Shown: positions 3,351 to 20,901 of the stretch, piece by piece
How positions within the stretch are numbered: position 1 is the stretch's first letter
Layout: each line of letters starts with the position of its first letter
Assembly (NCBI GenBank): GCA_964641815.1
Contig: CAZXKN010000116.1
Coordinates: 1,889-65,888 of the forward strand
DNA from: an uncultured Gemmatimonadaceae bacterium
Lineage (GTDB): Bacteria; Gemmatimonadota; Gemmatimonadetes; Gemmatimonadales; GWC2-71-9
Reading direction: 5' to 3'
Length of the DNA stretch: 64,000 bases
Notes under the pieces: generated by a model
Database searches by the model: none
Told to the model about the DNA's origin: nothing
What the model saw: the letters and a program-made list of their open reading frames with translations, nothing else
Translations under genes and position numbers: made by a program

Positions 3351-3356
3351 GCTGCG

Positions 3357-4114: not shown

Positions 4115-4137
4115 TGTACCTCTCCCCCTGTCCACCC

Positions 4138-5193: not shown

Positions 5194-5219
5194 GCAATGC
5201 CCTCCGGTGGTGGTCAACG

Positions 5220-5254
5220 AATCCGCATTCCCCAATCCGCAATCGGCAATGCCG
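5220..5254. repeat. tandem heptamer array (AATCCGC-like, 5 units), no complementary arm found
   Basis: Units are aatccgc attcccc aatccgc aatcggc aatgccg. The array lies in the 61-nt gap between the dCMP deaminase stop (5255) and the cupredoxin-fusion start (5193). Confidence 0.6.
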
Positions 5255-5758
5255 TCATCGCCACTCGTTCACCCAGCGGTCGTACTGCACGGTGGTGACG
5301 CCCCCCGAACCGAGTACTTCGATGCCGGACGGATCGCGGTAGGCCTTGCGATAGAAGACATGAGTCACGCCCGAGTTGATGATGAGCTTGGCACACATCA
5401 CGCAGGGGCTCGCGCTGACGAACAGCACCTTGTCGCGCACATTGCCGGGCGCCTTCACCAGGGCATTCATCTCGGAGTGAATGCAGCCGCAGCTCCCCGG
5501 CACGGCGCTGTCGCAGCGGTTGGCGAGTCCCCTGGCGTTGCCGTTGTAGCCGATCGCCAGGACGTTCTCGAGCTGCTGGTCGGTCACCACGGTCCCGACC
5601 TGCAGCCGTACGCAGGTGGACCGTTTGGCCAGCTCCTCCGCCATCCGCATGTACACCTCGTAGAGCGGAATGCGCTCCACTGGAGGCGCGGCCGCGCCGT
5701 CGGCCGTGAGGTTGAGGCGGTGCGTGTTGGCCGCGACGCCGTCCTTAGGTACGCTCAT
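5255..5758 (-). CDS. dCMP (deoxycytidylate) deaminase, ComEB-like
   Basis: Zinc-deaminase motifs CIHSEMNA and SPCVMCAKLI, with the N-terminal YMRMAEELAKRSTC context. Start taken at ATG 5758 (the track starts at 5770); the start is uncertain. Confidence 0.85.
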   Translation of the reverse strand: MSVPKDGVAANTHRLNLTADGAAAPPVERIPLYEVYMRMAEELAKRSTCVRLQVGTVVTDQQLENVLAIGYNGNARGLANRCDSAVPGSCGCIHSEMNALVKAPGNVRDKVLFVSASPCVMCAKLIINSGVTHVFYRKAYRDPSGIEVLGSGGVTTVQYDRWVNEWR

Positions 5759-6332
5759 GCACCTCCCCATCGGGGTCGTATGCCTGATACTTGCCGCGGG
5801 CGCGCTGCTGCGCGAGCCACGTGTCGAACCCCGACGGCACGAGACCGTTGGAGCGCTCCTGCCGTTCGGCGGCCCGCGTCGCGAGGAAGTCCGCGTACTC
5901 GTTCTTGGCGACCTCGTTGTGGCCGCGCACCCACTCCCAGTCCACCGTCAAGCCGTCTCGCGCCTGATCGAGCTTCTGCCACAGCAGCAGATTCTCGATC
6001 TCTCCCCCTTTGCGCTTCCAGCCCCGCGCCTTCCACCCGGGGAGCCATTCCGTGATCCCTTTGACGAGATACTCCGAATCGGAGACGTAGCGAATGCGGG
6101 CGTGCTGCCACTGCCGGTGTACCCACTCGAGCGTCGCGATCGCGCCGGCCAGCGCCATGCGGTTGTTGGTGGTGGCGGGGGCGAACTCGTAGAAATCCCA
6201 GCGCGCGATACTGTCGCCTGCGGGGGCCTCGATCAAGGCGCCGTTCCCGCCGGGACTGGGCTCGTCGCGGCGATTGCCGAGACAGCTTTCATCGGCGTGC
6301 ACGAGCACGGTGGTGACGGCGCGGGCGGGCAT
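5745..6332 (-). CDS. rnhA: ribonuclease HI
   Basis: Trimmed from track ORF 5745..6719, whose first 129 aa are an Arg-rich extension overlapping the upstream USP gene. From MPARAVTTVLVHADESCLGN the protein carries NNRMALAGAIATLE, VSDSEYLV and WEWVRGHNEVAKNEYAD, matching RNase H. Its start overlaps the USP stop (TGATG). Confidence 0.85.
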   Translation of the reverse strand: MPARAVTTVLVHADESCLGNRRDEPSPGGNGALIEAPAGDSIARWDFYEFAPATTNNRMALAGAIATLEWVHRQWQHARIRYVSDSEYLVKGITEWLPGWKARGWKRKGGEIENLLLWQKLDQARDGLTVDWEWVRGHNEVAKNEYADFLATRAAERQERSNGLVPSGFDTWLAQQRARGKYQAYDPDGEVHERT

Positions 6333-7090
6333 CAGGGTTGAATGGCGACGGGCAGATCGGTGTGCAACAGGATGTCTTCGGTGTGGGACGCGACGCTGGC
6401 GCGGCGCTCCAACGGCCCGCGCGGCACGTGCGCTCCGGCGAACAGCGCGTCGGCGTGGATCGCCCGCACCACACGTCCCACCACGTCCCCGGCGGAGCCT
6501 TCTTCCAGATGCGTCTGGAACGGCACACCGAGCAGCGAGAGCTCCGCCTCGGCCTGCCCCAGGACCTGCATGCCCTCGGCGCGGTCGCTGCAGGCGTGAA
6601 TCACATGCACCGTGCTGCCGGTGACGCTGGCGAAGCGCGCCGCGAGGTCCAAGGCCCGGCGGTTGCGGCCGTCGAACGCCACGGCGCACACCTGCATCGG
6701 AGACGGGCCGCCGCCGCATACGATCACGATGCGCTCGGAGAGCCGGATCAGCGACGCGGCGGTGTGTCCCAGCGCCGTCGGGCCGGCGTGCTCCGTCTCG
6801 ACCCCGCGCCGTCCCACCAGCACCGCATCCACTCCCTTCGCCAGTTCGGCGAGGGCGACGTCCGGGTCTCCCTGCTGCTGCTGCCCCTCCACCTCGAGCC
6901 CCGCTGCGGCGACGCGGAACCGCCCCCGGTCGACCAGGGCGGCCGCCGCCTCGGCACCACCCTTGGTGGACTCCTCCACCGCCGCCACGATGATCAAGGA
7001 ATGAAAACGCCGCGCCAGGACCACCGCCTGCTCGAGCGCGGCGTCGGCGTGCGGGCTTCCGTCCAGGCCGACGAGGAGGCGGGTGAACAT
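6332..7090 (-). CDS. tandem universal stress protein (two UspA domains)
   Basis: 252 aa. It has two Usp-like halves beginning LLVGLDGSPHADAAL and VCAVAFDGRNRRAL. The first half retains a G-x2-G-x9-G-like stretch (LVGRRGVETEHAGPTALGHTA). Confidence 0.8.
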   Translation of the reverse strand: MFTRLLVGLDGSPHADAALEQAVVLARRFHSLIIVAAVEESTKGGAEAAAALVDRGRFRVAAAGLEVEGQQQQGDPDVALAELAKGVDAVLVGRRGVETEHAGPTALGHTAASLIRLSERIVIVCGGGPSPMQVCAVAFDGRNRRALDLAARFASVTGSTVHVIHACSDRAEGMQVLGQAEAELSLLGVPFQTHLEEGSAGDVVGRVVRAIHADALFAGAHVPRGPLERRASVASHTEDILLHTDLPVAIQP

Positions 7091-7100
7091 CAGCGCGCGC

Positions 7101-7337
7101 TCACGGCAGGACGGAGAAGCGATCGAGCTCGCGCAGCGGGAAGCGCAGTACTTCGCCGGTCATCGGCAACCGGGCATCGAGCGCCTCGTTGCGTCCGTCG
7201 ATGTGCAGGTGCTCCGCCACGACGACGTACTCGGTGCCGCGGCGCGACAGCGCCACGCGGCGCCGCTCCCGCACCGCCCGCTCGAGCGCATCGAGCGCGT
7301 CGGGGGAGAGCGACCGGTACTCCGGGATGGCGGGCAT
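7101..7337 (-). CDS. hypothetical 78-aa protein
   Basis: ORF packed between selD (14-nt gap) and the USP gene (10-nt gap) on the same strand. No recognisable motif. Confidence 0.5.
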   Translation of the reverse strand: MPAIPEYRSLSPDALDALERAVRERRRVALSRRGTEYVVVAEHLHIDGRNEALDARLPMTGEVLRFPLRELDRFSVLP

Positions 7338-7351
7338 TGTCCAGGTGAGAT

Positions 7352-8398
7352 TTAACGGGCGTCGATCGTTCCCGCTGGCCCGGCCGTGACGGCTCCGATT
7401 ACCGCAGCAGCCGCCAGGCCTTCACGCGCCATTGCCTGCTGCAACCGCTCGACGCGCTCCGGCGGCAGCGTGATCAACAGGCCGCCCGACGTCTGCGCGT
7501 CCGCCAGCAGCAGGCGCTCCTCCTCGGGGATCGTCGCGGCGAACCGCACCGCCTCGCGCACGCTCTCGAGATTGCGTTTGGTCCCGCCCGGCACCGCGCC
7601 GCGCGCCAGCAGCGCGCGGGCCCCGGCGAGCACGGGGACCGTGGCGGCTGCGAGCGTGGCGGCGACGCCGCTGGCCCGCAGCAGCGAATGGAGGTGGCCG
7701 AGCAACCCGAAGCCGGTGACGTCGGTCGCGGCATGCACGCCGACCGCCAGCATCGCCCGCGACGCGGCGGCGTTGAGCGTCGTCATCGCCGTCACCGCGC
7801 CGGCGAGCGTCGCGGCGTCGGCAAGGTCGCGCTTCAGCGCGGTGGTAATGATCCCCGTGCCGATCGGCTTGGTGAGCAGCAGGGCGTCGCCGGGCTGCGC
7901 CCCGGCGTTGGTGACGATGCGCTCGGGGTGCACCTCGCCGATCACCACCATCCCGAACTTCGGCTCGGGATCATCCACCGAGTGCCCGCCCAGCACGAAC
8001 GCGCCCGCGGCCTGCGCAACGTCGCTGCCGCCCCGGAGCACCTCGCCCAGCAGCTCGAAGGGGAGCCGGTCCCGCGGCCACCCGACGAGGTTGAGCGCAA
8101 ACAGCGGCGCGCCGCCCATCGCGTAGACGTCGGAGAAGGCATTGGTGGCGGCGATACGCCCGAAGTCGTAGGCGTCGTCGACGATCGGCGTGAAGAAGTC
8201 GACCGTCGCAACGAGCGCCCGCTCCGGTGACAGCTGGAACACCGCCGCATCGTCGCGGCTCGAGGCGTCGACGAGGATGCGCGCGTCGTGCGGGACGGGG
8301 ATATGGCGCAGCACCTCGCTCAGCTCGGAGAACCCGAGCTTGCAGGCGCATCCCGCCCCGTGGGAGAAGGCGGTGAGGCGAACGGAGGTGGCGGTCAT
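7352..8398 (-). CDS. selD: selenide, water dikinase (selenophosphate synthetase), Cys-type
   Basis: 348 aa. N-terminal glycine-rich active-site loop is SHGAGCACK, with Cys rather than Sec. AIR-synthase-like core motifs include DDAAV, DFFTPIVDD and GGHS. Confidence 0.9.
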   Translation of the reverse strand: MTATSVRLTAFSHGAGCACKLGFSELSEVLRHIPVPHDARILVDASSRDDAAVFQLSPERALVATVDFFTPIVDDAYDFGRIAATNAFSDVYAMGGAPLFALNLVGWPRDRLPFELLGEVLRGGSDVAQAAGAFVLGGHSVDDPEPKFGMVVIGEVHPERIVTNAGAQPGDALLLTKPIGTGIITTALKRDLADAATLAGAVTAMTTLNAAASRAMLAVGVHAATDVTGFGLLGHLHSLLRASGVAATLAAATVPVLAGARALLARGAVPGGTKRNLESVREAVRFAATIPEEERLLLADAQTSGGLLITLPPERVERLQQAMAREGLAAAAVIGAVTAGPAGTIDAR

Positions 8399-8414
8399 GG
8401 ATCGGGAAATATGG

Positions 8415-8490
8415 AGGAGACGGTAGGAGACGGTAAGAGACGGTAAGGGATGCTACCCCTACCGTCTCTTACCGCCTCTTGCCGTCCCCT
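8415..8490 (-). repeat. unit-built hairpin H2 (decamer GAGACGGTAR arms)
   Basis: 8415-8449 (gagacggtag gagacggtaa gagacggtaa ggg) pairs with 8456-8490 (ccctaccgtctc ttaccgcctc ttgccgtccc c...). That is 35 positions with 5 mismatches and a 6-nt loop. It lies between the stop of 8495..9283 and the selD start. Confidence 0.8.
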
Positions 8491-8494
8491 ACCG

Positions 8495-9283
8495 TCAGGC
8501 TTCTTGCGCGACCAGTAGCGATCTGAGCCCGATCAGCGCACGCTCTTCGTTCGCCGGCTCGTCGAAGCTGCCATCCTCCCGCTGCATCGCCAACAGCGCG
8601 GGCACGGCGTTGGAGATCAGCTCCCGCGCCGGCCGGATCCCGGCGAGCAGCAGGGACTCGAGCATGTGGAACAGGTTCGCGTCGCCCCACGTTCCGTCGG
8701 GACGCTGGCTCTCGCCGAGACGCTCGACGCACGCCGGGAGCCGGTCATGGTACGGGACCGGCGCCACCGCCACGACGCCGAGGGCGCTGGCGGCGAGCTC
8801 GTTGTGCACGCTGGGCCAGAGACTTAAGACCCGCTCGAGGCGGCGCAACACTCGCGGCCGGGCATCCTGGCGCGCTCGGAGCAGCACGCGCAACCCGAGG
8901 CACTCCGCGGCGAACGTCGCCCCTTCCGCGCTCGTGAGCACGGTCCCGTTGGGCAGGGCGAGCGGCGACGGCGCCGACAGCGCGGGCGGCATCTCGAGGA
9001 ACGTCAGCACCCAGGCCACGAGCCGCGCCAGGCTGCCCTGCAACGCGTCGAGTCCCAGGTCCATCATCTCCCATGCGGCCCAGGCCGTGGTGACCAATGA
9101 CCCGCCGATCGAGCCGTCCATCTTCGTCTTGGCGCGCCGCTCGCTGACGAGCACCTGTGTGAGCTGCTCGTCCTCCGGGCGGGGGATCCCCAACAGTCGG
9201 CGGCCCAAGACACCTTGGCGCGAATCGAGGACCGAAAAGAAATTCTCCAGGCGTGTGATCGCCTGCTCCAGCGAGGTCGACAT
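8495..9283 (-). CDS. prenyltransferase/terpenoid-cyclase-repeat-like (alpha/alpha toroid) protein, function unknown
   Basis: 262 aa. Repeated motifs of the prenyltransferase/squalene-oxidase repeat type: DGSIGGSLVTTAWAAW, QRPDGTWGD, QREDGSF. Confidence 0.6.
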   Translation of the reverse strand: MSTSLEQAITRLENFFSVLDSRQGVLGRRLLGIPRPEDEQLTQVLVSERRAKTKMDGSIGGSLVTTAWAAWEMMDLGLDALQGSLARLVAWVLTFLEMPPALSAPSPLALPNGTVLTSAEGATFAAECLGLRVLLRARQDARPRVLRRLERVLSLWPSVHNELAASALGVVAVAPVPYHDRLPACVERLGESQRPDGTWGDANLFHMLESLLLAGIRPARELISNAVPALLAMQREDGSFDEPANEERALIGLRSLLVAQEA

Positions 9284-9427
9284 GAGGCCTCCGTGGGTCT
9301 GGAGGTGGATCGGTGCAGCGGTTTGGCGCGAATGCGAAATCCACGGCGACGGGCTCAGGGAAGCCGTGTGATCTCTACAGTCTGGCTGATAGTCCTTGAG
9401 CGCAGAAAAGGTTCCCGGAAGAATCGC

Positions 9428-9757
9428 TCACCCGAGCCGCCACGCCAGGATGGCGCCTGCACCACAATAGCGCATCACCGAAAATGCCATGGCCGCGAAT
9501 GCGGGACGGGTCGAGAGGGCGGACGCGAGCAGCCCGACGAGGCCGAACAGCAGCCACCACGCACCGTGGCCGAGGCTGTCGAACCACAGCGACGCAAACA
9601 ACGTGACGACGAGCGCTTCGAACGCGCTGGCCGCGAGCGTACCTGCCGTCGGGGCCGGACTCACGGTGACGCCCGTCACACGATGCGCGGCCCAGCCGGC
9701 GGCGGCGAACCAGATCGCCACGGGGACCCAGGCGAGCAACAGCCGCCCGAGCGTCAT
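9428..9757 (-). CDS. small integral membrane protein (3-4 predicted TM helices)
   Basis: 109 aa, almost entirely hydrophobic (LLLAWVPVAIWFAAAGWAA..., WWLLFGLVGLLASAL...). Its start overlaps the stop of the upstream amidohydrolase by 4 nt. Confidence 0.55.
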   Translation of the reverse strand: MTLGRLLLAWVPVAIWFAAAGWAAHRVTGVTVSPAPTAGTLAASAFEALVVTLFASLWFDSLGHGAWWLLFGLVGLLASALSTRPAFAAMAFSVMRYCGAGAILAWRLG

Positions 9758-11496
9758 CCGCTCGTGGCGCCGCCCTTGCCGCGGCGATCGGACGGCACGT
9801 AGCCGGGCCCGCGCAGGCCGCGACCCGGACGGGCAGCGGTGATCTCGCCGCGTCGCAGCACGATCTGGCCGTTGACCAGCACGTAGGTGATGCCGACGGA
9901 GGGCTGGTGTGGCTTCTCGAAGGTCGCGCGGTCGTTCACCGTCTCGGGATCGAACACCGTGATGTCGGCGGCCATCCCGGGCCGCAGCAGGCCGCGGTCA
10001 GCGAGGCCGACGCGCTGCGCGGCGAGGGACGTCATTTTGCGCACTGCGAACTCGAGCGGCATCAGATGTTGCTGGCGCACGTACAGTCCGAGGATGCGCG
10101 GGAACGTCCCGTACGCCCGCGGATGCGTGTAATCCTTGCCGAACGGTCCGTCGGGGGCGACGCCGGAGGCATCGCAGTCCACCGCCACCCACCACGTCTT
10201 CAGCGCCGCCTGCACATCGTCATCTCTCATCTCGAAGTAGATCGCGCCGGTGCGGGCGTGGTCGGCGAGCACGATGTCGAACAGCGTCTCAATGGGGTCC
10301 TTCTTGCGCTCGCGGGCGATGTCCCCGAGGTGACGTCCGTCGAGCGCGTGGAGCGAGTCCTGGAACACCCCGGCGATCATCACCCCATCAGCGCCGCCCG
10401 AATTGATGTAGGGGTTCTCGTCGCCGCCTCCGGTGAGCATCTCCTGGCGCAGCTTGACCCGGGTGGGCCGGTCGCGCAGCCGTGCGAGCAGTGAATCCGT
10501 CCCGCCGGCGTGGGCCCACTGCGGGATCGCCGCGTCGAGCGACGTGGCGGCGGCGATGTAGGGATACTGATCGGCGGTGATGTCGAGCCCCGCGGCCCGG
10601 GCGGAGTCGATGCGCTGAATCAGGTGCGGCATGCGGCCCCACTGCGGCGCGCCTGCGGCCTTGAAATGCCAGATCTCGGCGGGGATATCGGCGGCCTGGG
10701 CAATGCGGAACACTTCGTCGAGCGCCTCGTCTTCGTGTCCCGCTTCGTTGCGGATGTGGGAGGCGTAGATCCCGCCGTGACGGCGCGCCGCGCGCGCGAG
10801 CCCGATCAGCTCTTCGGTCGGTGCGTAGATCGCCGGGGCGTACAGCAGGGCCGTCGACACGCCGAGGGCGCCCTGTTCCATCATGGTGTCGACCAGCGCT
10901 TCCATGTGGGCCTGCTCGGGGCCGGTGGCCGGACGGTTGGCGAAGCCGATCACCGCCATCCGCACCTGCGTGGCGCCGACGAACGTCGCGATATTGATCG
11001 TGGATCCGGTGTGCTCGAGGTGGGCGAAGTAGCCGTCCAGATCGCGCCAGTCCTCGCTGAACTTGTACTTCTTCATCACCGCGGAATCGAGCGCGACCAG
11101 CCGGTCGGTGAGCGGCGCCACCGAGCCGCCTTCTCCCGTCACTTCGGTCGTGATCCCCTGCGTCACCTTCGAAAGCGCCCGATTGTCGATCAGGACGTTC
11201 GTCTCCGACTGCCCCAGCATGTCGACGAAGCCGGGTGCGACGACCAGCCCTTTCACGTCGAGCGTTTCCTTCGCCGTCCCGGTGAGGCGGCCGATCGCGG
11301 CGATGCGATCGCCGCGCACGCCGAGATCCCCGCGCCAGCGCGGATTGCCGCTGCCGTCGACGATCCAGCCGCCGCTGAGCAGCACGTCATACGTGGCGTT
11401 CGCCGGCGGCGGCGGCGCGGCGGTACTGGACGGCTTGGGGCGCTGGCACGCCGCGGCGGCGAGCAGCACGAGCCCCGCACAGGTCACTTTTTCCAT
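9754..11496 (-). CDS. N-acyl-D-amino-acid deacylase (D-aminoacylase)-like amidohydrolase, secreted/lipoprotein
   Basis: Trimmed from track ORF 9754..12561 to MEKVTCAGLVLLAAAACQ (lipoprotein-like signal). Family motifs: DGSGNPRWRGDLGVRGDRIAAIG, APGFVDMLGQSE, GITTEVTGEGGS, IYASHIRNE, IWHFKAAG. Confidence 0.8.
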   Translation of the reverse strand: MEKVTCAGLVLLAAAACQRPKPSSTAAPPPPANATYDVLLSGGWIVDGSGNPRWRGDLGVRGDRIAAIGRLTGTAKETLDVKGLVVAPGFVDMLGQSETNVLIDNRALSKVTQGITTEVTGEGGSVAPLTDRLVALDSAVMKKYKFSEDWRDLDGYFAHLEHTGSTINIATFVGATQVRMAVIGFANRPATGPEQAHMEALVDTMMEQGALGVSTALLYAPAIYAPTEELIGLARAARRHGGIYASHIRNEAGHEDEALDEVFRIAQAADIPAEIWHFKAAGAPQWGRMPHLIQRIDSARAAGLDITADQYPYIAAATSLDAAIPQWAHAGGTDSLLARLRDRPTRVKLRQEMLTGGGDENPYINSGGADGVMIAGVFQDSLHALDGRHLGDIARERKKDPIETLFDIVLADHARTGAIYFEMRDDDVQAALKTWWVAVDCDASGVAPDGPFGKDYTHPRAYGTFPRILGLYVRQQHLMPLEFAVRKMTSLAAQRVGLADRGLLRPGMAADITVFDPETVNDRATFEKPHQPSVGITYVLVNGQIVLRRGEITAARPGRGLRGPGYVPSDRRGKGGATSG

Positions 11497-12839
11497 TCGG
11501 CCCTCAAGGAATCCGGTTTGATCGCCCGCCCGCGCAGCATCACCCAGGCGATGTCGCGGGTGGCGGAAATGTCGTCCACGGGACTGCGGTTCAGTACGAC
11601 CAGATCGGCCACCTTCCCCTGCACCAGCACGCCGATCGAATCGGCGCCGAGCACCTGGGCGGCGTGCCGGGTCGCGGCGGTCAGCGCCTCGATCGGGGTG
11701 AAGCCGGCCGCGACGAGCAGCGCGAGCTCTTCGTGCAGCGAGGCGCCCGGAACGAGGAGCGGGTTCGCGGCACCGGTGCCCGTCGCGACGAGTCCCCCCG
11801 CGGCCTTGAAGTCCCGCACGAACTGATCCTGCCGGTCGCGGCCGCGGCGGAACGCGGCGAACTGCGGCGCGCGCCAGCCGCTGCGCTGCAGCCACCCCGC
11901 GGCGTCGCGCACCGTTGCGGCGTCGGCGGGGACGTCCGCCATGCCGAAACGCGTCGCCAGGGCGGGGTCGTCGAAGCGCGCGTAGGTGTCGTGCGCGACC
12001 AGTGCCGGCACGATGGCGACGTGCGTGGCGGCGAGGGCGCGGGCCGTCCGCTCCACCGTCGCCGAGTCGAGCCCTCCCCAGCTCGCCTCTTCCAGCGTGA
12101 GGCCGGGGAAGAAGAGGTCGTGGGCGCGGACGAAGGGGGCAGGGTCCATCGCCGACGCGACGACGCCGGAGAGATCCTCCAGCGACGCGACGCCGGCGCG
12201 CGCGGCGGACACGGCGTCGAGCTTGCCGACCCGCGCCGCGACGCGCAGCCGCAGCGTCGCGGCTTCGTCGATGATGGCCCGCAACAGCTCCGGCGTGATC
12301 TTCGTGTAGACCATCACGAAATCCGCTCCGGCGACGGCGCGCTGATCCACCGCCTGTCGGGCTTCCTCGTCTCCCGACACCGCGGCGGCGCCGGGGAGCG
12401 TGGGGGCGAGCCCGTCGATCGCCGCCCCCGCCGTGTACACGCGCGGCCCGATGATGGATCCGAGATCGACGTCTTTCTTGAGCGTAAACCCTGAATCCGC
12501 CGGAGAATGCACGTCGCGCACCGACGTGACGCCCCACGCGACGTAGCGCGGCAACGCCCACCGCTCCACCATCGCGTTGGCGTCGATCAGACCGGGGATG
12601 ATCGTCTTGCCCAGCAGATTGATGCGCTCGGCGCCGCGCGGCACTTTGATTTCGTTCACGCGGGCGACCGCTTTGATCTCCCCATCCTTAATGAGGATCA
12701 GCGCGTCCGTCTTCGGTGCACCGCCCGAGCCGTCGATCAGCGTCGCGCCTTCCAGCGCGATCATCCCTTTCCCGGGGGACGTGCACGCCGCGGCCAGCGC
12801 CAGGGCGCCGAGCTGCGCGGCGGTCCACCAGCGACTCAC
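11484..12839 (-). CDS. amidohydrolase-fold protein with degenerate metal-binding motifs, secreted/lipoprotein
   Basis: Trimmed from 11484..13313 to GTG 12839 (VSRWWTAAQLGALALAAACTSPG; GTGA overlap with the upstream stop). The fold signature LIDGSG...ILIKDGEIKAV...IIPGLIDA is present. The HxH site reads ANAM and the usual GTDA reads GTGAAN. Confidence 0.75.
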   Translation of the reverse strand: MSRWWTAAQLGALALAAACTSPGKGMIALEGATLIDGSGGAPKTDALILIKDGEIKAVARVNEIKVPRGAERINLLGKTIIPGLIDANAMVERWALPRYVAWGVTSVRDVHSPADSGFTLKKDVDLGSIIGPRVYTAGAAIDGLAPTLPGAAAVSGDEEARQAVDQRAVAGADFVMVYTKITPELLRAIIDEAATLRLRVAARVGKLDAVSAARAGVASLEDLSGVVASAMDPAPFVRAHDLFFPGLTLEEASWGGLDSATVERTARALAATHVAIVPALVAHDTYARFDDPALATRFGMADVPADAATVRDAAGWLQRSGWRAPQFAAFRRGRDRQDQFVRDFKAAGGLVATGTGAANPLLVPGASLHEELALLVAAGFTPIEALTAATRHAAQVLGADSIGVLVQGKVADLVVLNRSPVDDISATRDIAWVMLRGRAIKPDSLRAEWKK

Positions 12840-13285
12840 GGCTTGGGATCCGCCGACGTGTGATCGTGGAGAATCAGCCAGCGCGGCCCTCGCTTCTGCA
12901 GGATCAGCGTGAACGGCCCGCTGGCGGTGAGGGAATCGCCGCGGTGCAGCGCGAAGCGGGCGGTGGCGAACGCGAGGTCGAGGGTGAGCGGCTGGACACG
13001 CACCTCGCTGAAGGACAGCGAATCGCGCGACTTGCCGGGCGCGAAATACGTCGTCTTGTAGTGATCGTAGAGCGGCTGCCAGCCGTATTGCACGTGACCG
13101 CCGGTGACGTAGCTCGTAGTCGAATCCCTGGCGTAGTCGCTCATGAAGCCGTCGAGGTCGCCCCGGTTCCAGTCGCTCGCCGAGCGGGTGAGCGCGGCGG
13201 TGATTTCCTGCTGGGGATCTCCGGTGGGGACCTTGGGTGCCGCGCAGGCAGCCGCGAGCACCACCACACCGCATACGCTGCGCAT
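12836..13285 (-). CDS. SnoaL/DUF4440-like (NTF2-fold) lipoprotein
   Basis: Trimmed to MRSVCGVVVLAAACAAP (lipobox). The NTF2-like pattern is ITAALTRSASDWNRGDLDGFMSDYA ... WLILHDHTS. Confidence 0.6.
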   Translation of the reverse strand: MRSVCGVVVLAAACAAPKVPTGDPQQEITAALTRSASDWNRGDLDGFMSDYARDSTTSYVTGGHVQYGWQPLYDHYKTTYFAPGKSRDSLSFSEVRVQPLTLDLAFATARFALHRGDSLTASGPFTLILQKRGPRWLILHDHTSADPKP

Positions 13286-13328
13286 GACCACCTCTTCGTT
13301 GGCGGGCCGCCACAACGTACCTTGCCGG

Positions 13329-14075
13329 ATGGCCGATGCAACCCCGTTCGCGGGAGCCATCGTCTACGGACCGGTCCTTTCCCGTCGCCTGGGACGGAGT
13401 CTGGGGATCGATCTCCTGCCGCCGCGCTCGAAGCTGTGCGAGCTCGACTGTCCCTATTGCGATTGCGGATTCACCACCCCACGGGTCCCGCGGGACCGCT
13501 GGCCGTCTCCCGACGAAGTCGGCCAGGCACTGCGGCGGGCGCTCGAACGCTCAGCGACGGCCCCCCACTGGATTACGCTGTCGGGGCGCGGCGAGCCGAC
13601 GTTGCACCCGCGGTTCGCCGTAGCCGTCGATCGTGTGCTCGCGGCGCGGGACGCGCTCGCCCCAGCGGTGCGCGTCGCCATCCTCTCCAACGGCATCGCC
13701 GCCCGGGTGCCGTCCATCCGCGACGCCCTGCGGCGGCTCGATGCGCGCATCATGAAGCTCGATCCCGGTCCGGCGGCGCGGGTGAACGGCGCGGTCATCG
13801 ACGCCGAGCGGATCGCGCGGTCGTATCAGGGGCTCGCGCCCGTGACGGTGCAGGCCATGGTGGTTCGGGGACCGGAATGGGACGGCTCGAGCGACGCCAG
13901 CTTCGCCGCCTGGCTGCCGCTCGCCGTCCTGGCGCAACCGGAGGCGGTACAACTGACGACCCTGAGCCGGCCGCCGGCGGATTCCAGAATCACAAATGTG
14001 CCGCGGGAGCGCCTCCAGCGAATGGCCGCGGCCATCGCGGAAGCGCTCCCGCGAGCGATTGTCCGTATCGTTTAG
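13329..14075 (+). CDS. radical SAM protein (small, single-domain)
   Basis: Trimmed to MADATPFAGAIVYGPVLSRRLGRSLGIDLLP. The CxxxCxxC cluster is CELDCPYC, followed by a GEPTLHP SAM-binding-like motif. Confidence 0.75.
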   Translation: MADATPFAGAIVYGPVLSRRLGRSLGIDLLPPRSKLCELDCPYCDCGFTTPRVPRDRWPSPDEVGQALRRALERSATAPHWITLSGRGEPTLHPRFAVAVDRVLAARDALAPAVRVAILSNGIAARVPSIRDALRRLDARIMKLDPGPAARVNGAVIDAERIARSYQGLAPVTVQAMVVRGPEWDGSSDASFAAWLPLAVLAQPEAVQLTTLSRPPADSRITNVPRERLQRMAAAIAEALPRAIVRIV

Positions 14076-14362
14076 CGACGCCGGCGCTTCGCCTTGCGTC
14101 CCGTCTTCTTCTTCGCCTTCGCGCGCTTCGCCTTCTTCTTGCTCTTCTTCGGGGCTTTCTTCTTCTTTGCCTTTGCCTTCGGCTTCGACGCTTTCTTCTT
14201 TTTCTTCGCCGGCGCGCGCTTCGGTCTGGGCGGCGACGTCCCCTCATCCATCGACGGAGTGTACAGCGGTGCCGGCATCGGTTCAGGCGCTGGCTCCGGC
14301 GGGAACATCGGCTCCATCATTCCGGGGCCGCCCATTCCCGTGAACTCTGTGGTCGAGACCAT
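14072..14362 (-). CDS. lysine-rich basic protein (histone H1-like tail), putative
   Basis: 96 aa with a Met/Pro-rich N-terminus and a C-terminal half of KKKKKASKPKAKAKKKKAPKKSKKKAKRAKAKKK. The strong AAG/AAA run is atypical for this GC-rich sequence. The opposite-strand ORF is a poly-Phe artefact. Confidence 0.55.
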   Translation of the reverse strand: MVSTTEFTGMGGPGMMEPMFPPEPAPEPMPAPLYTPSMDEGTSPPRPKRAPAKKKKKASKPKAKAKKKKAPKKSKKKAKRAKAKKKTGRKAKRRRR

Positions 14363-14560
14363 CTATGTGTCCTCCGCAGGTTGTGTCGGCTGGGGGCCTA
14401 TAGCTTATCCGACTCACAGTCCGACGCAAGTGAGCGCGAAGCACCTCCCGCCGCCTGAGCGGACCCGCGGAGGGGCACTCCCCCGACACCCGGCCGAACG
14501 CCTATCGTGTGACCCCAATCAGGGTTACGGCCTCGCGCTGCGGCATTACATTAGGCGACA

Positions 14561-16813
14561 ATGATCATCACCAGATTCCTCGTCCTGGCCGCCGCCGTAT
14601 CCCCGCTGGCGGCTCAGGCAGTGACCGAAGTGCAGGTGGCACCCCCGTCGATCAGCATCAAGGTGGGTGAGCACTACGGCTTGATCGCGACCGCCTACGA
14701 CCGCGTGGGCAACGTGCTCCCCGCGGCCCGGATCCAGTGGGTCTCGAACAACACCGCCGTCGCCCGCGTCGACGGCAGCGGCACCGTGACCGGTGTGGCC
14801 GCCGGCGTCGCGATCGTCGAGGCCCGCGCGGGCCAGAAACGTGGGCAGGCGGCGGTCCAGGTGGCAGCGGCGGCGCCGACGACCAACTCGACGACCACCA
14901 CCGCGGCCGGCGGTGGTGATCCGTATGCCGGCCAGCCCCCGGGCACCGGGACAGCCGCAGTGCTGCGCATCGATCCGCCTTCGGTCTACCTGCTTCCCTC
15001 CGAGCACACCCGCGTCTCGCCGCGCGCCTTGCGCGACGACGGATCCCCCGCCGCGCCGGTGCAGGTGACGTGGAAGTCGCTGCGCGAGGACATCGCGAGC
15101 GTAGACGCCGGCGGCACGGTGGTGGCGCTGGCGCCGGGGCAGGGGACGATTCAGATGTCGGGGTCGAACGGGCTCACGGCGACCGCGCCGGTCGTGGTGC
15201 AACAGTCGGAATTCGCGATTCAAGAGGGGAATTCGCTCACCCTGGCGCCAGGCGAATCGGACACGCTGCACGTCGTTGTCCCGACGCAGGAGAGCCGGCT
15301 GATCAGTCCCATCGCCCTGACCTGGACCACGAGCGACCAGAGCGTCGCCCAGGTCAGCCTCAACGGGGTGGTGCGGGCGATGGGGTCCGGCAAGGCGACG
15401 CTCGGCGTTTCGGGATTCCTGCAGCAGAAGGGCGTCGAGGTCCTGGTCCACCGGGCGGTGGATCTGTTCGCCGTACGGCCGTCGACCCGTGCCGACGTCG
15501 AAGTGCCGGTGACGTCGACGGTACGCTTCGAAGCCAAGGCGCTCGCGGCCGACAGCACACCGGTACCCGAGGCGCGGCTCGTCTGGACCGTCGCCGACAC
15601 GGGGCTGGCGGGTTTCGATCCGGCGACCGGGATCCTCACCGGACGCAAGATCGGCCGCACCCAGCTGCTGCTGCGCGGACCCGGCCAGACGCCGCTGCGC
15701 ACCAGCTGGAACATCAGCGTCATCGCGGGCTCGGTGAAACTCGCCACCGCGCGCACCGGCATTACCCAGGGCGCGCGCCTGGCGCTCAGGGCCAGCTTCG
15801 CCGACGACACCGGTGCGGTGCTCGGTCCCGCCAGCGGGCTCACCTGGAGCGTTGATCCTGCGAGCGTCGCCACGGTGTCGGAGGACGGCACCGTTTCTGG
15901 CGTCGGCCCGGGGCACGCCCGCGTCACCGCGACCGCGCCGGGGGGAAAGACCGCGACCGCGGATGTGTTCGTCGAGAGCGAGCTGTTGCTCGCCGGGACG
16001 CGGAACGGGTCGCTCAAGTTGTACTGGGTCGACCGCGCGAACCTGAGCGTGCTGCGCCGCGCAGCGAGCGACACGGCGCTGGCCACCGATCCCGCGATCT
16101 CCCCCGACGGGTCGCGTGTGGCGTTCGTCTCGACCCGCGACGGCAATCTCGAGATCTACGTGATGGACGCGGACGGGACGAACCTCACCCGCGTCACGAA
16201 CGATCCACAGCCCGACGGCCGGCCGGCCTTCACTCCCGACGGATTGGGGCTGGTGTTCCAGGCGCAGCGCATGGTGAACGGCAAGCCGTTCCTCGAGATT
16301 TACAGCGCCGCGCTCGACGGCAGCGGACTGAAAGCGCTCACCACCGATTCGCTGAACCAGACCCCGACGGTTGCTCCCGACGGCGCCACGATCGCGTTCG
16401 CCTCGACGCGCAACAAGAACGCCGACATCTGGCTGATGAGCCGGGACGGCAGCAATCCGCGCAACTTCACGAAGTCGCCGCAGCAGACGGAAAGCGAACC
16501 GCATTTCCTGCGCGACGGCTCGCTCGCCTACCTGGTGGAGCGCAAGGACCAGACGAACCGGACCGTGCGCCAGGTGATGAAGGTGAACCTCGCGACGGGT
16601 GCGACGACGCCGCTCACGGGGACCGATTACCTGATCGCGACGTACGCCGTGGCGCCGGCGGGCGACCTCATCGCCCTCGTGGTGCCGTCCGATCCGTCCA
16701 ACCGCAAGAACCCGATGTACCGGATCTACCTGCAGCCGACGAGCGGCGGCGCTCCCACGATGATCCCGGCGGGCCCGACCGAGCAGATGCAGGCGCCCGT
16801 GTTCCTGCCGTAG
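14561..16813 (+). CDS. secreted protein with multiple Big_2 (bacterial Ig-like) domains and a C-terminal TolB-like PD40 beta-propeller
   Basis: 750 aa with signal peptide MIITRFLVLAAAVSPLAAQA. Repeated ...W.S.N..VA.V...G.V.....G.A.I.A patterns (Big_2). C-terminal PD40 repeats include PAISPDGSRVAFVSTRDGNLEIYVMDADGTN and PTVAPDGATIAFASTRNKNADIWLM. Confidence 0.8.
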   Translation: MIITRFLVLAAAVSPLAAQAVTEVQVAPPSISIKVGEHYGLIATAYDRVGNVLPAARIQWVSNNTAVARVDGSGTVTGVAAGVAIVEARAGQKRGQAAVQVAAAAPTTNSTTTTAAGGGDPYAGQPPGTGTAAVLRIDPPSVYLLPSEHTRVSPRALRDDGSPAAPVQVTWKSLREDIASVDAGGTVVALAPGQGTIQMSGSNGLTATAPVVVQQSEFAIQEGNSLTLAPGESDTLHVVVPTQESRLISPIALTWTTSDQSVAQVSLNGVVRAMGSGKATLGVSGFLQQKGVEVLVHRAVDLFAVRPSTRADVEVPVTSTVRFEAKALAADSTPVPEARLVWTVADTGLAGFDPATGILTGRKIGRTQLLLRGPGQTPLRTSWNISVIAGSVKLATARTGITQGARLALRASFADDTGAVLGPASGLTWSVDPASVATVSEDGTVSGVGPGHARVTATAPGGKTATADVFVESELLLAGTRNGSLKLYWVDRANLSVLRRAASDTALATDPAISPDGSRVAFVSTRDGNLEIYVMDADGTNLTRVTNDPQPDGRPAFTPDGLGLVFQAQRMVNGKPFLEIYSAALDGSGLKALTTDSLNQTPTVAPDGATIAFASTRNKNADIWLMSRDGSNPRNFTKSPQQTESEPHFLRDGSLAYLVERKDQTNRTVRQVMKVNLATGATTPLTGTDYLIATYAVAPAGDLIALVVPSDPSNRKNPMYRIYLQPTSGGAPTMIPAGPTEQMQAPVFLP

Positions 16814-17865
16814 TGAAGGCATTCGTCCTCCGGGCGACCGGAGGAGAGGGACTCGAACACACCGCGCTCGTCGATGTCCCGCCCGCTCCCACGCCGGGTC
16901 CCGGCACAGTGCGCATCGCCATCAAGGCGACAGCGCTCAATCACCTCGATCTCTTCGTCATCCGCGGAATTCCGGGTCTGCCGAAGTCGCTGCCGCACAT
17001 TCTCGGCTCGGACGGGGCGGGTGTCGTGGAATCGGTGGGGGCCGGGGTAACCGCGGTCCGGCCGGGCGAGCGCGTCCTCATCAACCCCGGCATCTCCGAC
17101 TACAGCTGCGAATTCTGCCGCAAGGGCGAGCACAGTCTCTGTGTGCGCTACGGCATTCTGGGAGAGCACTTCCCCGGGACCATGGCGGAGCTCGTGACGG
17201 TGCCTGACCACAATGTCCTGCCGATCCCCGCGACGACCCCGCCCCTCACCTGGTCTGAAGCGGCAGCGTTTTCCCTCGTCACCCTCACGGCCTGGCGCAT
17301 GGTGGTGACCCGCGCGCAGCTGCAAGCGGGCGAGTGGATGCTCGTGTGGGGGATCGGCGGCGGGGTATCGCTCACCGCGCTGCGCATCGCGAGACTCGTG
17401 GGCGCGCGGGTGATCGCCACGTCGTCGAGTGATGCGAAGCTGGCCAGGGCCAGGGAGCTGGGTGCCGAGGTCACGGTGAATCACCGCACGCAGCCGGTGA
17501 CACAGGTCGTGCGCGAGGTTCCCGGGAAGCGCGGCGTGGATGTCGTGGTGGAGAACGTGGGGGAGGTGACGTGGGGCGATTCGCTGCGCTGTCTCGCCAA
17601 GGGCGGGCGGATCGTCACCTGCGGCGGCACGAGCGGGCCGCAGCTCGTGACCGACGTGCGGCCGCTGTTCTGGCATCAATTCACGATCCTCGGCTCGACG
17701 ATGGGGAATGCCGCCGAGTATCGCGAGGTGGTGCGGCGGCTGGGACAAGGGGAGCTGCGTCCGATCATCGATGCCACGGTTCCCCTGGAGCGCGCACGGG
17801 AGGGGTTCGAGCGCCTGGCGCGCGGCGATCAGATTGGGAAAGTGACAGTCGAAATCGGGAACTGA
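16813..17865 (+). CDS. zinc-type alcohol dehydrogenase / quinone oxidoreductase (MDR family)
   Basis: 350 aa with GSDGAGVVESVG, the Rossmann motif VWGIGGGVS, and a typical MDR length and C-terminus. Confidence 0.85.
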   Translation: MKAFVLRATGGEGLEHTALVDVPPAPTPGPGTVRIAIKATALNHLDLFVIRGIPGLPKSLPHILGSDGAGVVESVGAGVTAVRPGERVLINPGISDYSCEFCRKGEHSLCVRYGILGEHFPGTMAELVTVPDHNVLPIPATTPPLTWSEAAAFSLVTLTAWRMVVTRAQLQAGEWMLVWGIGGGVSLTALRIARLVGARVIATSSSDAKLARARELGAEVTVNHRTQPVTQVVREVPGKRGVDVVVENVGEVTWGDSLRCLAKGGRIVTCGGTSGPQLVTDVRPLFWHQFTILGSTMGNAAEYREVVRRLGQGELRPIIDATVPLERAREGFERLARGDQIGKVTVEIGN

Positions 17866-18351
17866 GCCTGCGGGTTGACGAAATCGGCACGAACAACCGG
17901 CCCAAGGGGGCCAACCAACTGTTCGCTTCGCTTGCAGGACGATCGTCCGTGCCGAGCCCGGTCATCGGCGAAGAATCTGAGCCGGCACTGTCAACCAACT
18001 CTCAACTCATCGCTGTTTGTGGTTACCCGGGAGCGTGAGCAGAAGGTCCGCTGCGAACTACTTGGCTGGTAATCACTTGTGCGCCAGCTGCCGGCAGCGC
18101 TCTGCGATTGGTCTTTCAACCACAATTATTCTCATCACAGCCACGCCAGCTCCGAGAAGGGACCGAACGCGGACGATGCACGATCAGATTGACGAGCAGC
18201 GAGGCGCGGTAATACGCCCTCCGAGAGGCTGCGGAACGCGTTGCATTCTTGGTCCTAAGTAATTACTTTTCATCCACTTACGCCGCTTGCCGCGCCCCAT
18301 TTAACCATACACCCAGCTGACGGCGAGTAGCTGAAAGCTGATGGCTCTTCA
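17866..18351. other. 486-bp noncoding tract, less GC-rich and palindrome-rich (possible ncRNA and/or gyrA leader/promoter)
   Basis: Only short, unconvincing ORFs with poor third-position GC. Contains perfect 12-bp palindromes GGACGATCGTCC (17937-17948) and GCTGCCGGCAGC (18087-18098). An 8-bp helix TTGTGGTT (18017-18024) / AACCACAA (18118-18125) encloses ~95 nt with further stems. CAACCAACT is repeated at 17912 and 17992. Confidence 0.6.
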
Positions 18352-20901
18352 ATGACCTCACCGACCCGCGAACGCATCCTGCCCCGGCTCATCGAAGACG
18401 AGCTGAAGGAATCGTTCCTCGACTATTCGATGAGCGTCATCGTGCAGCGCGCGCTGCCCGATGTGCGTGACGGCTTGAAGCCGGTGCACCGGCGCATCCT
18501 GTACGCGATGCACGAGCTGGGACTCCTCCCGGGGCGTCCCTTCAAGAAGAGCGCGACCGTCGTCGGCGACGTGCTCGGCAAGTACCACCCGCACGGCGAT
18601 ATCGCCGTCTACGACTCGCTGGTCCGCATGGTGCAGGACTTCTCGCTGCGCTATCCGCTGATCGACGGGCAGGGAAACTTCGGCTCGGTCGACGGCGATG
18701 CCGCAGCCGCCTACCGCTACACTGAAGCCCGGCTGACGCGCATCGCGATGACGATGCTCGAGGACATCGACAAGAACACCGTCGATTTCATCCCCAATTT
18801 CGACGAGCATCTGCAGGAGCCGACCGTTCTGCCGGCCCGCCTGCCGAATCTGCTGGTCAACGGATCGGCCGGGATCGCGGTCGGGATGGCGACCAACATT
18901 CCGCCCCACAACCTCGGTGAGACGGTCGCAGCGATCACCCACCTGGTCGATCATCCCACGGCGACCATCAAGGATCTGCGCAAGTTCATCAAGGGGCCGG
19001 ACTTCCCCACGGGCGCGATCATCTACGGCCGGGACGGGATCAAAGAATGCTACGAGAAGGGCCGCGGCCGTATCGTCATCCGGGCCCGGGCGACGATCGA
19101 GGAGAAGGAGTCGACGGGGAAGCAGCAGATCGTCGTCACCGAGTTCCCCTACCAGGTCTCCCCCGAACGGGTGATCGAGCAGATCCGCGACCTGGTGCTG
19201 GGCAAGAAGCTCGAGGGGATCAGCGACCTCCGCAATGAATCCGACAAGGACGGCATCCGCGTCCTGATCGAGCTGAAGCGCGACATCGTGCCGATGGTCG
19301 TGCTGAACCAGCTGTACCAGCGCACGCAGATGCAGGTGACGTTCGGAGCGATCATGCTGGCGCTGGTGGACGGCGTGCCGCGCGAGCTGAACCTGAAGGA
19401 GATCCTCGAGAACTTCATCGAGCATCGCCACACCGTCATCGTCCGCCGCACCGAATTCGAGCTGCAGCGCGCCCAGGATCGCGAGCACATCCTGGAAGGG
19501 TTGAAGATCGCTGTCGATCACATCGACGAAGTGGTCCGCATCATCCGCAAGGCCAAGGACGTCCCCGCTGCCGACGCGGCATTGCGCAAGCGCTTCAAGT
19601 TGTCCGAGCGGCAGTCCGCTGAAATCCTCAACATGCGCCTGGCGCGGCTCACGGCCCTCGAAATCACCAAGCTCGAAGACGAATTGAAGGAAGTCCGCAA
19701 GTTCATCAAGGAATGCAAGGAGATTCTCGCCTCCAAGCCGCGGCGCATGAAGATCCTGAAGGAAGAGCTGGCCGAGCTGGGGCACGGCTTCAGCGACGAG
19801 CGGCGCACCGAGATCGTGGCCGACCAGGGCGAGTTCTCGATCGAGGACCTGATCGCCGAAGAGGACATGGTGATCACGGTGTCCCACGGCGGCTACATCA
19901 AGCGTCTCCCCGTCACCTCCTACCGGCGGCAGCGGCGCGGCGGCCGGGGCGTCACCGCCGCCCACGCGAAGGAAGACGACTGGCTCGAGCACCTGTTCAT
20001 CGCCTCGACCCACGACTACGTGATGTTCTTCACCCAGAACGGGCAGTGCTACTGGCTCAAGGTGCACGAGATCGCCCAGGCCGCGCGCGCCGCCCGGGGC
20101 AAGCCGGTGCTCAACTGCATCGCGATCAAGCCCGACGAGCGGGTCGCGGCGCTGGTGCCGGTGCGGGAGTTCTCCGAGGATCAGTTCCTGTTCTTCATCA
20201 CCCGTGAGGGGGTGGTGAAGAAGACGCGGCTCTCCGAGTTCGGCAATCCGCGCTCGGTGGGCATCCGGGCGATCAACATCGAGAAGGGCGATGAGCTGAT
20301 CGACGTGCAGGTGACCGATGGGAAGAACGACGTTGTGCTCGCCACCCGGCACGGGATGAGCATCCGCTTCCACGAGCAGGATGTGCGCGACATGGGACGG
20401 ACCGCCACCGGCGTCTGGGGCGTCGCGCTCGACAAGAGGGACAAGGTGATCGATCTCGTGATCATCCGGCGCGCGTCGACGCTGCTCGCCGTCACCGAGA
20501 AGGGGATGGGCAAGCGCTCGGAGCTCGACGAATACCGCGTGCAGCATCGCGGCGGCCGCGGCATCATCACGCTGAAGCGCAACGACAAAACCGGCGACGT
20601 GGTCGCCCTGAAGGAAGTGCTCCCCGACGACGAGTTGATGATGATCACCAAGAAGGGGATCGTGATCCGCGTCCCGGTCGAAGGCATCCGCATTACGGGC
20701 CGCAACACCCAGGGCGTGAAGGTCATGAACCTCACCCCCGGCGATCTCGTGGTCGATGTGGCGCGTATCGTCAAGGAAGAGGATGGCGAGGGGGACGACG
20801 ACGAGGAGTCCCCGACCCCAAAAGCCGCCCCGCAAGGTCCCCCGAAAGCTCCGCCGCCGAAGGCCGGGCCGTCCAAGGGCAAAGGCAAGAAAAGGAAATG
20901 A
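18352..20901 (+). CDS. gyrA: DNA gyrase subunit A
   Basis: 849 aa with [26 protein letters not shown], the active-site [12 protein letters not shown]-terminal beta-pinwheel repeats and an acidic-then-basic tail. Confidence 0.97.

Follow-up and report, generated by a model that had tools for sequence, protein, structure and literature searches.

A conserved hairpin element between a dehydrogenase gene and gyrA in Gemmatimonadales, proposed as an orphaned REPIN/IS200-end-like module

The 486-nt gap (positions 17866-18351) that precedes gyrA in a 64,000-nt stretch of DNA from a Gemmatimonadales genome (the window) carries a conserved hairpin-rich element, block A, whose closest described counterparts are repetitive extragenic palindromic (REP) sequences, REPINs and their REP-associated tyrosine transposases, the RAYTs (Nunvar 2010; Bertels and Rainey 2011; PMC5581495). 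RAYT genes are single-copy, vertically inherited and flanked by hairpin-forming REP doublets, and functions in termination and in the control of translation have been attributed to REPs (PMC5581495). An action of REPs in supercoiling, termination and mRNA stabilization has also been hypothesized (PMC3733652). A second point of comparison is the insertion sequence IS608, the left end of which has a TTAC cleavage site located 19 nt 5' of the left hairpin (PMC3201880). Among the REP/RAYT papers listed by our literature search, none mentions Gemmatimonadota.

Block A resembles the REP/REPIN systems in being an extragenic hairpin of two inverted arms around a spacer, located at the 3' end of a gene, and in having a stem that was kept through compensatory changes, while the corresponding module of relatives lies beside a single, vertically inherited gene for a Y1 transposase of the HUH type with inverted units on both sides. 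It differs in being found as one copy in the 64 kb, with a single copy at each carrying locus over about 1 Mb of related DNA, in the lack of a transposase in the window, in having a loop motif that is more conserved than the arms, and in an additional conserved TCAAC-N6-TCAAC repeat. We consider it probable that the gap is composite, with block A being an orphaned REPIN/IS200-end-like hairpin, block B a spacer, and block C the promoter of gyrA.

Block A, a single-copy hairpin with a covarying stem

We compared 174 loci (1.04 Mb in total; L numbers below), 163 of them from protein searches with GyrA and with the product of the gene upstream of the gap, a Zn-dependent dehydrogenase or quinone-reductase-like protein (ADH), and 11 more from look-ups of Y1 proteins. 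The best genome matches are metagenome-assembled genomes of Gemmatimonadales, with GyrA identities of up to 90%, and one metagenome contig (L081) carries a gap that is identical bar one base. The ADH-gyrA synteny is kept in most relatives fetched, and the distance between the two genes ranges from 44 to 928 nt in the syntenic ones; therefore, much of the window's gap appears to be dispensable for gyrA expression. An alignment with the ten closest relatives, together with an all-against-all BLAST of the gaps, splits the tract into three modules (Table 1), of which block A is near-invariant in close relatives and still recognizable in more distant ones, and block C is common to almost all relatives. 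A first interpretation from the letters of the window (the sequence-only reading) had raised the possibility of a structured RNA or regulatory region and had left about 375 nt unexplained. A single structured RNA of about 375 nt is not supported, since only about 125 nt (17883-18007) are conserved and the whole 486 nt fold no better than shuffles (z = -0.69), but a conserved structured element is indeed present in the gap, namely, block A with its covarying helix P1.

The covariance model R1, built for block A, scores 129 bits at 17875-18020, and the next best match in the window has 10 bits. Searches of the window with blastn, nhmmer and cmsearch with filters off gave no second copy, and a dispersed repeat or miniature inverted-repeat transposable element within the window was rejected on this ground. 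With nhmmer and R1, block A is found once per locus in 44 of the fetched Gemmatimonadales loci, which include several duplicate or near-identical contigs, and nowhere else in the 174 loci. On contigs with both genes, it lies between ADH and gyrA, and where gyrA has been relocated, it adjoins ADH. The block A sequences of the window, L082, L084 and L163 share 91-98% identity, and the third codon positions of ADH in the same comparison share 72-80%. This conservation above that of ADH third codon positions indicates purifying selection on the sequence, or recent homogenization.

The contig L087 (Ga0247676_1000876) has flanking genes about 90-94% identical to those of the window and an intergenic region of the L085 type, with a block A that is 94.5% identical to that of L085 and 71% identical to that of the window. 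The mosaic pattern of these sequences indicates recombination at the locus, or a chimeric contig.

The two inverted arms of block A form the helix P1, which reads on the minus strand as 16 contiguous pairs, including three G.U pairs that are A.C on the plus strand. A search for covariation in homologues had been suggested as a check of the sequence-only reading, and for P1 it was positive. Across 20 homologues, 73.8% of the P1 cells are paired, compared to 28-38% with slid partners, and both sides have changed at 11 of the 16 pairs; Watson-Crick cells number 211 of 280, compared to 61-76 in shifted registers. The covariation score is 0.289 versus 0.06-0.12 for slid partners, a value reached by none of 500 shuffles. 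The arms were anchored at their outer ends only and aligned without gaps, which kept complementarity from steering the result (alignment A3, the centre of which is a synthetic linker). RNAalifold run on a plain MAFFT alignment returned only 6 pairs because indels misalign the P1 arms, and the anchored ungapped arm alignment was used instead. Examples of compensatory changes are CACG/CGTG to CATG/CATG in L100, CGGCAC/GTGCCG to CGGCGC/GCGCCG in L093, L097 and L098, and the 11-bp GCACGGGCGCC/GGCGCCCGTGC pairing of L001. The covariation over these homologues identifies the P1 arms as two inverted units with a spacer that form a hairpin, as in REPs and REPINs.

Not every pairing of this region is of the same standing. 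The GTGCCGAGC/GCCGGCAC hairpin noticed earlier is present, but it shares the 3' arm of P1, competes with P1, and is not conserved. For a second helix (P2) in the window-type clade, no consistent register was found across the homologues by eye, and we do not claim it. Of the 19 aligned homologues, 13 have the inner GGCCC-AAGG-GGGCC hairpin, mostly with CAAGGGGGCC conserved, and L001, L090, L093, L096, L097 and L098 lack it.

The apical motif CGCTTCGCT is the most strongly kept, none of the 19 aligned homologues showing a change in eight of its nine bases (GCTTCGCT). Of 106 ADH-gyrA gaps, 36 contain the 7-mer CTTCGCT, among them every gap with block A. GCCGAGCCCGGTCATCG is a further invariant motif, AATCTG is invariant or near-invariant, and the TCAAC-N6-TCAAC repeat is kept in nearly all block A homologues.

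Y1 transposase genes beside the element in relatives

In L005, L007, L023, L156 and L164-168, a minus-strand gene for a Y1 transposase of 126-135 aa separates the ADH gene from block A, the L164-168 contigs carrying the Y1 protein P0133. The L005 protein matches PF01797 (E = 2e-16), and the proteins of L005, L007 and L023 score 54-63 bits against the NCBIfam IS200/IS605 model (NF033573; cut-off 55); some homologues are named RayT in the naming of the Joint Genome Institute. The R1 match lies directly upstream of the Y1 start codon and on the Y1 sense strand, and the minus strand of block A therefore corresponds to the 5' flank of the Y1 gene. Since it is homologous to this upstream flank, block A is more plausibly a palindromic element associated with the transposase than an RNA gene standing on its own. 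The proposal of a structured RNA or regulatory region is thereby kept in part: a structured element and a promoter are there, but the former is not best described as an RNA.

A palindromic unit, repeated in direct and inverted orientation, flanks the Y1 gene; it is composed of small hairpins with CTTCAG/CTGAAG-type loops joined by …GCCGAGC… and contains the sequence element …GTGYYKGCCGAGC…. In the Y1-bearing clade, as seen in L005, L023 and L173, the P1 arms are two inverted copies of this unit, and the GCCGAGC core of the conserved block A segment at 17951-17967 is common to the units around the Y1 genes of L023, L156, L169 and L173. The Y1 genes occupy the same locus in several species, with 62-69% identity among those directly compared, and they diverge in step with their hosts instead of being identical copies.

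Y1 homologues (P0167 and P0187, about 65% identity) are also found at an unrelated conserved locus, where the inverted units on both sides share >90% identity with the L023 and L156 units and GTTGA-N6-GTTGAC precedes the gene. This second locus (L169-L174) lies between a CytoC_RC gene and TMEM175/peptidase genes. In its example L173 (2320-3075; GCA_035251445.1, DATFEG010000106.1), inverted palindromic units stand on both sides, and the Y1 gene is followed by a repeat of the unit and of the first 10 bases of the Y1 open reading frame (ORF) (ATGTCGACGC). The ADH-gyrA gap of the same assembly (L019) is 100 nt long and has no block A.

On the Y1 sense strand, the foot of the hairpin lies 18-19 nt after the second GTTGAN in nine genomes (L002, L004, L005, L007, L011, L023, L029, L156 and L164; partly determined by eye). 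As in IS608, the Y1 gene of the relatives is thus preceded on its sense strand by a short motif and then, 18-19 nt downstream of that motif, by a hairpin, and action on one DNA strand is presumed. The likeness ends at the window, where the 18-19-nt geometry of the Y1-bearing clade is not found. Unlike in IS200/IS605 elements, the Y1 and ADH stop codons of the relatives are too close together to accommodate a right-end hairpin, and the Y1 genes stay at one locus across species instead of forming multiple identical copies.

We propose that block A is an orphaned palindromic module, the counterparts of which in other Gemmatimonadales make up the upstream flank of a Y1 (HUH) gene, and, as we infer, that block A is now kept for a host function. 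Read on the Y1 sense strand, which is the minus strand of the window, the module would consist of GTTGA-N6-GTTGAC, a short hairpin region, and the long hairpin P1 around the loop AGCGAAGCG. The Y1 gene would have been deleted from the window locus, or would never have been there, and the hairpin would have been retained by selection after, or without, the transposase. Its most likely present role would be that of a stable single-stranded hairpin after the ADH stop codon, which may end or protect the transcript and insulate the gyrA promoter. Single-stranded DNA hairpins of this kind are the substrates of Y1 enzymes, and block A may alternatively be acted on by one encoded elsewhere in the genome; a minus-strand RNA is another candidate function.

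Several observations weigh against an orphaned REPIN/IS200-end-like module. The most conserved part of block A is the loop motif and not the arms, whereas REPINs usually show the opposite, with arms more conserved than the loop. The many dispersed copies of REPs and REPINs were not found within the 64 kb and the 1.04 Mb of loci, and against the curated RAYT model NF047646 the Y1 proteins reach 28-29 bits, far from the cut-off of 80, so that they fit the IS200 model and not the RAYT one. For an IS200/IS605 element, neither the right-end hairpin 3' of tnpA nor multiple near-identical copies were found, and only 14 nt separate the Y1 and ADH stop codons in L005 and L164, which leaves no room for such a hairpin. 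At the second locus, the flanks of the Y1 genes have no R1 match and share only the GTTGA repeat and the GCCGAGC-type units. In the window itself, the 64 kb contain no Y1 gene or remnant, a clean hairpin at a 19-nt spacing was not seen in the window-type element, and no U-tract follows P1 on either strand (the plus strand reads GCCCGGTC, the minus strand UUUCGUCA). Finally, we infer the present function of block A from sequence, and the direction of evolution may have been either loss or gain of the Y1 gene.

The core of block A folds in the window with -54.7 kcal/mol on the minus strand (z = -2.58) and -41.0 kcal/mol on the plus strand (z = -0.83), and with short flanks the z scores are -3.29 and -0.43, respectively. 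Over 14 homologues, the mean z score is -1.67 for minus versus -1.35 for plus, with minus folding better in 9 of the 14. Non-Watson-Crick cells of P1 across the homologues are A.C in 20 cases and G.T in 7 when read on the plus strand, an excess that comes partly from shared ancestry and composition, slid controls being already at about 58:42. Together, these values point weakly toward the minus strand.

It is conceivable, though unlikely, that block A is a small structured RNA of the minus strand (sRNA), free-standing or transposon-derived and now independent, that starts near the GTTGA repeats, finishes with the long hairpin adjoining the ADH stop codon, and acts via the AGCGAAGCG loop or as an antisense to the 3' end of the ADH mRNA. 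The covarying helix with its invariant loop motifs, the strong purifying selection without an adjacent transposase, and the much better minus-strand fold of the window would agree with this, as would the A.C cells of P1, which become G.U on the minus strand. The strand is also the Y1 sense strand in relatives, so that block A would be the 5' leader of Y1 there. The 5' untranslated region of the Salmonella IS200 tnpA gene is reported to act as a regulatory sRNA and likewise is a structured leader upstream of an IS200-type gene, but block A has no sequence or Rfam similarity to it, and the window copy has no transposase gene. Against an sRNA stand the weakness of the strand preference over the homologues, the partly inherited and compositional origin of the wobble asymmetry, and the fact that a G.T wobble is tolerated equally in single-stranded DNA. 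Moreover, no promoter-like site was found on the minus strand in 17800-18400, and a consensus promoter and terminator scan of both strands over 17600-18600 called nothing. The sequence-only reading had recognized no known RNA here, in line with our searches: Rfam at gathering thresholds has no match in the whole window, at E <= 10 the region 17700-18500 gives only eukaryotic snoRNA and miRNA noise (E = 0.2-8), and ARAGORN predicts no tRNA or tmRNA.

Block A may also be a terminator or 3'-end stabilizer of ADH that evolved in place, with the Y1 genes having inserted next to hairpins instead of sharing descent with them; we hold this to be quite unlikely. The element begins 0-21 nt past the ADH stop codon in the window-type clade, its hairpin is very stable, and in L095 and L096, which have no gyrA after ADH (in L096 a GMC oxidoreductase gene comes next), it still stands beside the ADH stop codon. 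However, P1 lacks the U-tract that, with a GC-rich hairpin, makes an intrinsic terminator, and on the plus strand it is broken in the window by three A.C mismatches. In the Y1-bearing clade, about 450 nt and a convergent gene lie between ADH and block A, an unrelated locus has Y1 genes that are again accompanied by the GTTGA repeat and GCCGAGC units, and in many relatives the ADH-gyrA gap (44-130 nt) is free of any hairpin.

A further version starts from the transposon-derived origin and lets block A be an exapted element that was kept for a host function after loss of the Y1 gene; it is possible, if doubtful. The exapted element may be a minus-strand regulatory RNA using the AGCGAAGCG loop and the GUUGA repeats, or a hairpin in single-stranded DNA or RNA that may couple the end of the ADH transcript to the supercoiling-sensitive gyrA promoter.

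The spacer, the gyrA promoter and the surrounding sequence

Block B is limited to the window, L081, L082, L083, L161, L084 and L163, is about 63-65% identical to its counterparts in L082 and L084, and is replaced by 30-70 nt in the other carriers of block A. Short internal duplications (18150-71 and 18219-40; CTGTCAACCA and CTTTCAACCA) suggest from the sequence that it grew by local duplication and indels, and it appears to be a rapidly evolving, lineage-specific spacer for which we detected no function. The 8-bp helix TTGTGGTT/AACCACAA (18017-24 / 18118-25) that had been noted in it does exist, but its 5' arm is not conserved in L082 and L084. The segment of about 95 nt that this helix was thought to close (18017-18125) accordingly falls away as a structural unit, being part of the non-conserved block B and having a closing helix that relatives do not keep.

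A decayed gene, be it a dead transposase or another pseudogene, had been named as a finding that would refute the sequence-only reading, and it is very improbable and effectively refuted. Relatives do have a Y1 gene in the same gap, but tblastn with Y1 yields noise (best E = 0.4) in a database restricted to the gaps of the window and of the ten relatives closest to it. Pfam gave no match for the 10 longest stop-free frames (38-93 aa), nor for the gap in a search of 5 ORFs, and no reading frame of block B is conserved, indels breaking the frames in L082 and L084. A phmmer search of the 93-aa frame at 17981-18259 against 1.84 billion proteins returned one match (E = 3e-6), which covers 33 residues at 36% identity and is counted four times in an internally repeated protein. 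The score is inflated because the match is counted on internal repeats, and we rejected it as chance.

A 63-aa ORF was called on the minus strand of the homologous gap in the L082-type relatives L161 (4307-4498) and L162 (3463-3654). It has no Pfam match, a 37-nt indel abolishes it in the window, and it is probably spurious.

The DnaA-box-like words TCAACCACA and GTAACCACA, the AT-rich stretches, and a switch of gene orientation could be taken as signs of a replication origin or a platform for DnaA or another regulator. By eye, two inverted matches in 7 of 9 positions to TTATCCACA lie at 18017-25 and 18116-24, and the orientation switch falls between about 13.3 and 14.5 kb. Both boxes, however, are in block B and absent from most relatives, with the 5' box not being conserved even in L082; there is no GC skew minimum at the gap, and no dnaA or dnaN context was seen, which leaves this reading unsupported and extremely improbable. 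Genes are mostly on the minus strand from 583 to 13313 and on the plus strand from 14561, and the GC skew is flat near the switch at about 13300-14560, giving no sign of a replication origin there.

Block C has a strong phylogenetic footprint, which supports its assignment as the gyrA promoter. The hexamer pair TTGCAT-N17-TACTTT, already proposed as such by the sequence-only reading, is the sole match to TTGNNN-N16-18-TANNNT on both strands of 17800-18400, and about 100 Gemmatimonadales loci show GTTGCnTTTC … TAnTTT at the same positions and spacing. Judged by its conserved hexamers, its spacing within 16-18 nt, and its location upstream of a gene, 18241-18269 would be a sigma-70-type promoter; a stricter consensus promoter scan did not call it. 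The -10 form TAnTTT is also compatible with a Bacteroidota-like TAnnTTT motif.

The -10 hexamer is bracketed by the inverted repeat CTAAGT-N15-ACTTAG, which is kept in nearly all relatives (about 100 Gemmatimonadales genomes, including L003, L006, L017, L026, L031 and L109-L116). When the gap measures only 44-77 nt, CTAAGT contains the ADH stop codon TAA, and the -35 hexamer (GTTGCC) belongs to the ADH coding sequence. The repeat is a candidate operator, probably bound by a dimeric regulator. We know of no protein described to bind CTAAGT-N15-ACTTAG around a -10 hexamer. Sigma-70 promoters with an operator over the -10 hexamer are the nearest comparison, and the gyrA hexamers here likewise stand at a 17-nt spacing, order-wide. 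The gyrA promoters of other bacteria are supercoiling-sensitive. In a subset of genomes (L013, L015, L018, L020, L022-L025, L104, L108, L118, L135 and L149), a second inverted repeat, TAAGT-N15-TTTAG/GTTAG, is found about 60-90 nt upstream of the gyrA -35 hexamer, a sequence pattern that suggests two operator-like sites there.

The repeats AGCTGACGGC and AGCTGATGGC of the presumed gyrA leader are conserved in close relatives, and no obvious Shine-Dalgarno sequence precedes the gyrA ATG in the window. Short-gap relatives have a C-rich ACACCTCC leader instead.

The gap as a whole was described before as noncoding and less GC-rich than its surroundings, and this is borne out. Its GC content is 0.56-0.62 versus 0.65-0.72 in the flanks, and third-position GC is 0.60-0.62 in the two ORFs of 50 aa or more, counted from start to stop, that are mainly located in it, compared to 0.78-0.94 for those assigned as genes in a crude ORF map of the window. 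The ADH ORF ends at 17865, and 18352 is the most upstream start possible for the gyrA ORF. That this is the only large gap in the window is approximately right: the remaining gaps of the ORF map are GC-rich and contain long ORFs, mostly with high third-position GC, but there is another low-GC stretch at 57099-57560, which comes down to some 175 nt preceding a probable regulator gene. This AT-rich intergenic stretch (approximately 57150-57270) contains repeated palindromic TTACGTAA/CTTACGTA words, probably an array of autoregulatory operators, and the ORF downstream of it, starting at 57275, looks by eye like a PadR-type regulator.

The palindromes, the GGCCC-AAGG-GGGCC hairpin, the CAACCAACT duplication, the promoter hexamers and the helices of the sequence-only reading were all found where it had placed them. 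With a third one inside the inverted repeat around the gyrA -10, the gap has 3 perfect 12-nt palindromes versus 0.14 expected from shuffles (P = 0.0004), the window-wide rate being 0.39 per 486 nt. A direct repeat CGAAATCGG at 17850-17858 and 17879-17887 extends over the ADH stop codon and into the beginning of the P1 arm, and could be a deletion microhomology scar or chance.

Table 1. Coordinates of the genes, modules and sequence motifs in and around the gap upstream of gyrA
Feature	Position	Strand	Remarks
ADH gene (Zn-dependent dehydrogenase/quinone-reductase-like, medium-chain)	16813-17865	+	350 aa; Pfam ADH_N, ADH_zinc_N, ADH_zinc_N_2
Block A, conserved single-copy hairpin-rich element	17875-18020; core 17883-18007 (125 nt)	window sequence favours minus	Covariance model R1
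P1 5' arm TCGGCACGAACAACCG	17884-17899		Pairs with 17940-17955; inverted repeat I1
Inner hairpin GGCCC-AAGG-GGGCC	17899-17912		Apical P1; optional insert
Duplicated CAACCAACT	17912 and 17992		
Near-invariant motif CGCTTCGCT	17924-17932		Apical region of P1
Perfect palindrome GGACGATCGTCC	17937-17948		
P1 3' arm CGATCGTCCGTGCCGA	17940-17955		Pairs with 17884-17899
GCCGAG-CCCGGTCATCG	17951-17967		Conserved; GCCGAG closes P1; alignment A1
Direct repeat TCAAC-N6-TCAAC	17991-18006		11-nt period; minus strand reads GTTGA-N6-GTTGAC
Block B, spacer with indels	18008-18237		Palindrome 18087-98, AT-rich 18120-18140, direct repeat 18150-71 / 18219-40
Perfect palindrome GCTGCCGGCAGC	18087-18098		In block B
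Block C	18238-18351		
Proposed gyrA promoter	18241-18269	+	-35 TTGCAT 18241-46, 17-nt spacer, -10 TACTTT 18264-69
Inverted repeat bracketing the -10	18255-18281		CTAAGT 18255-60, N15, ACTTAC 18276-81
Perfect palindrome AAGTAATTACTT	18257-18268		Inside the inverted repeat around the gyrA -10
Presumed gyrA 5' leader	18282-18351	+	Repeats AGCTGACGGC 18315-24 and AGCTGATGGC 18336-45 (family D2)
gyrA (DNA gyrase subunit A)	18352-20901	+	849 aa; Pfam DNA_topoisoIV (E = 7.6e-160); six DNA_gyraseA_C repeats

Implications for palindromic elements in Gemmatimonadota

These results overturn nothing; they extend known element types to a new lineage and flag one orphan. The footprint of the gyrA promoter and its inverted repeat give a first sequence-level picture of a housekeeping promoter with a candidate operator in Gemmatimonadota.

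If the orphan reading is true, this well-defined locus, in a phylum with many uncultured members, would form a natural series in which one can ask why palindromic elements persist after their transposases are lost, with a Y1 gene and hairpin module (at two loci), the hairpin alone, and neither as its states. The purifying selection in the hairpin-only state would point to a REP-like host function, such as termination, mRNA stability, or an interaction with supercoiling and gyrase, and this copy of block A stands directly beside the gyrA promoter. If exaptation is true, the phylum, for which no such case has been described, would have either a persistent REPIN-RAYT-like partnership or a domesticated remnant of one. 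The main point of interest is a hairpin that seems to persist under selection without a transposase, next to gyrA.

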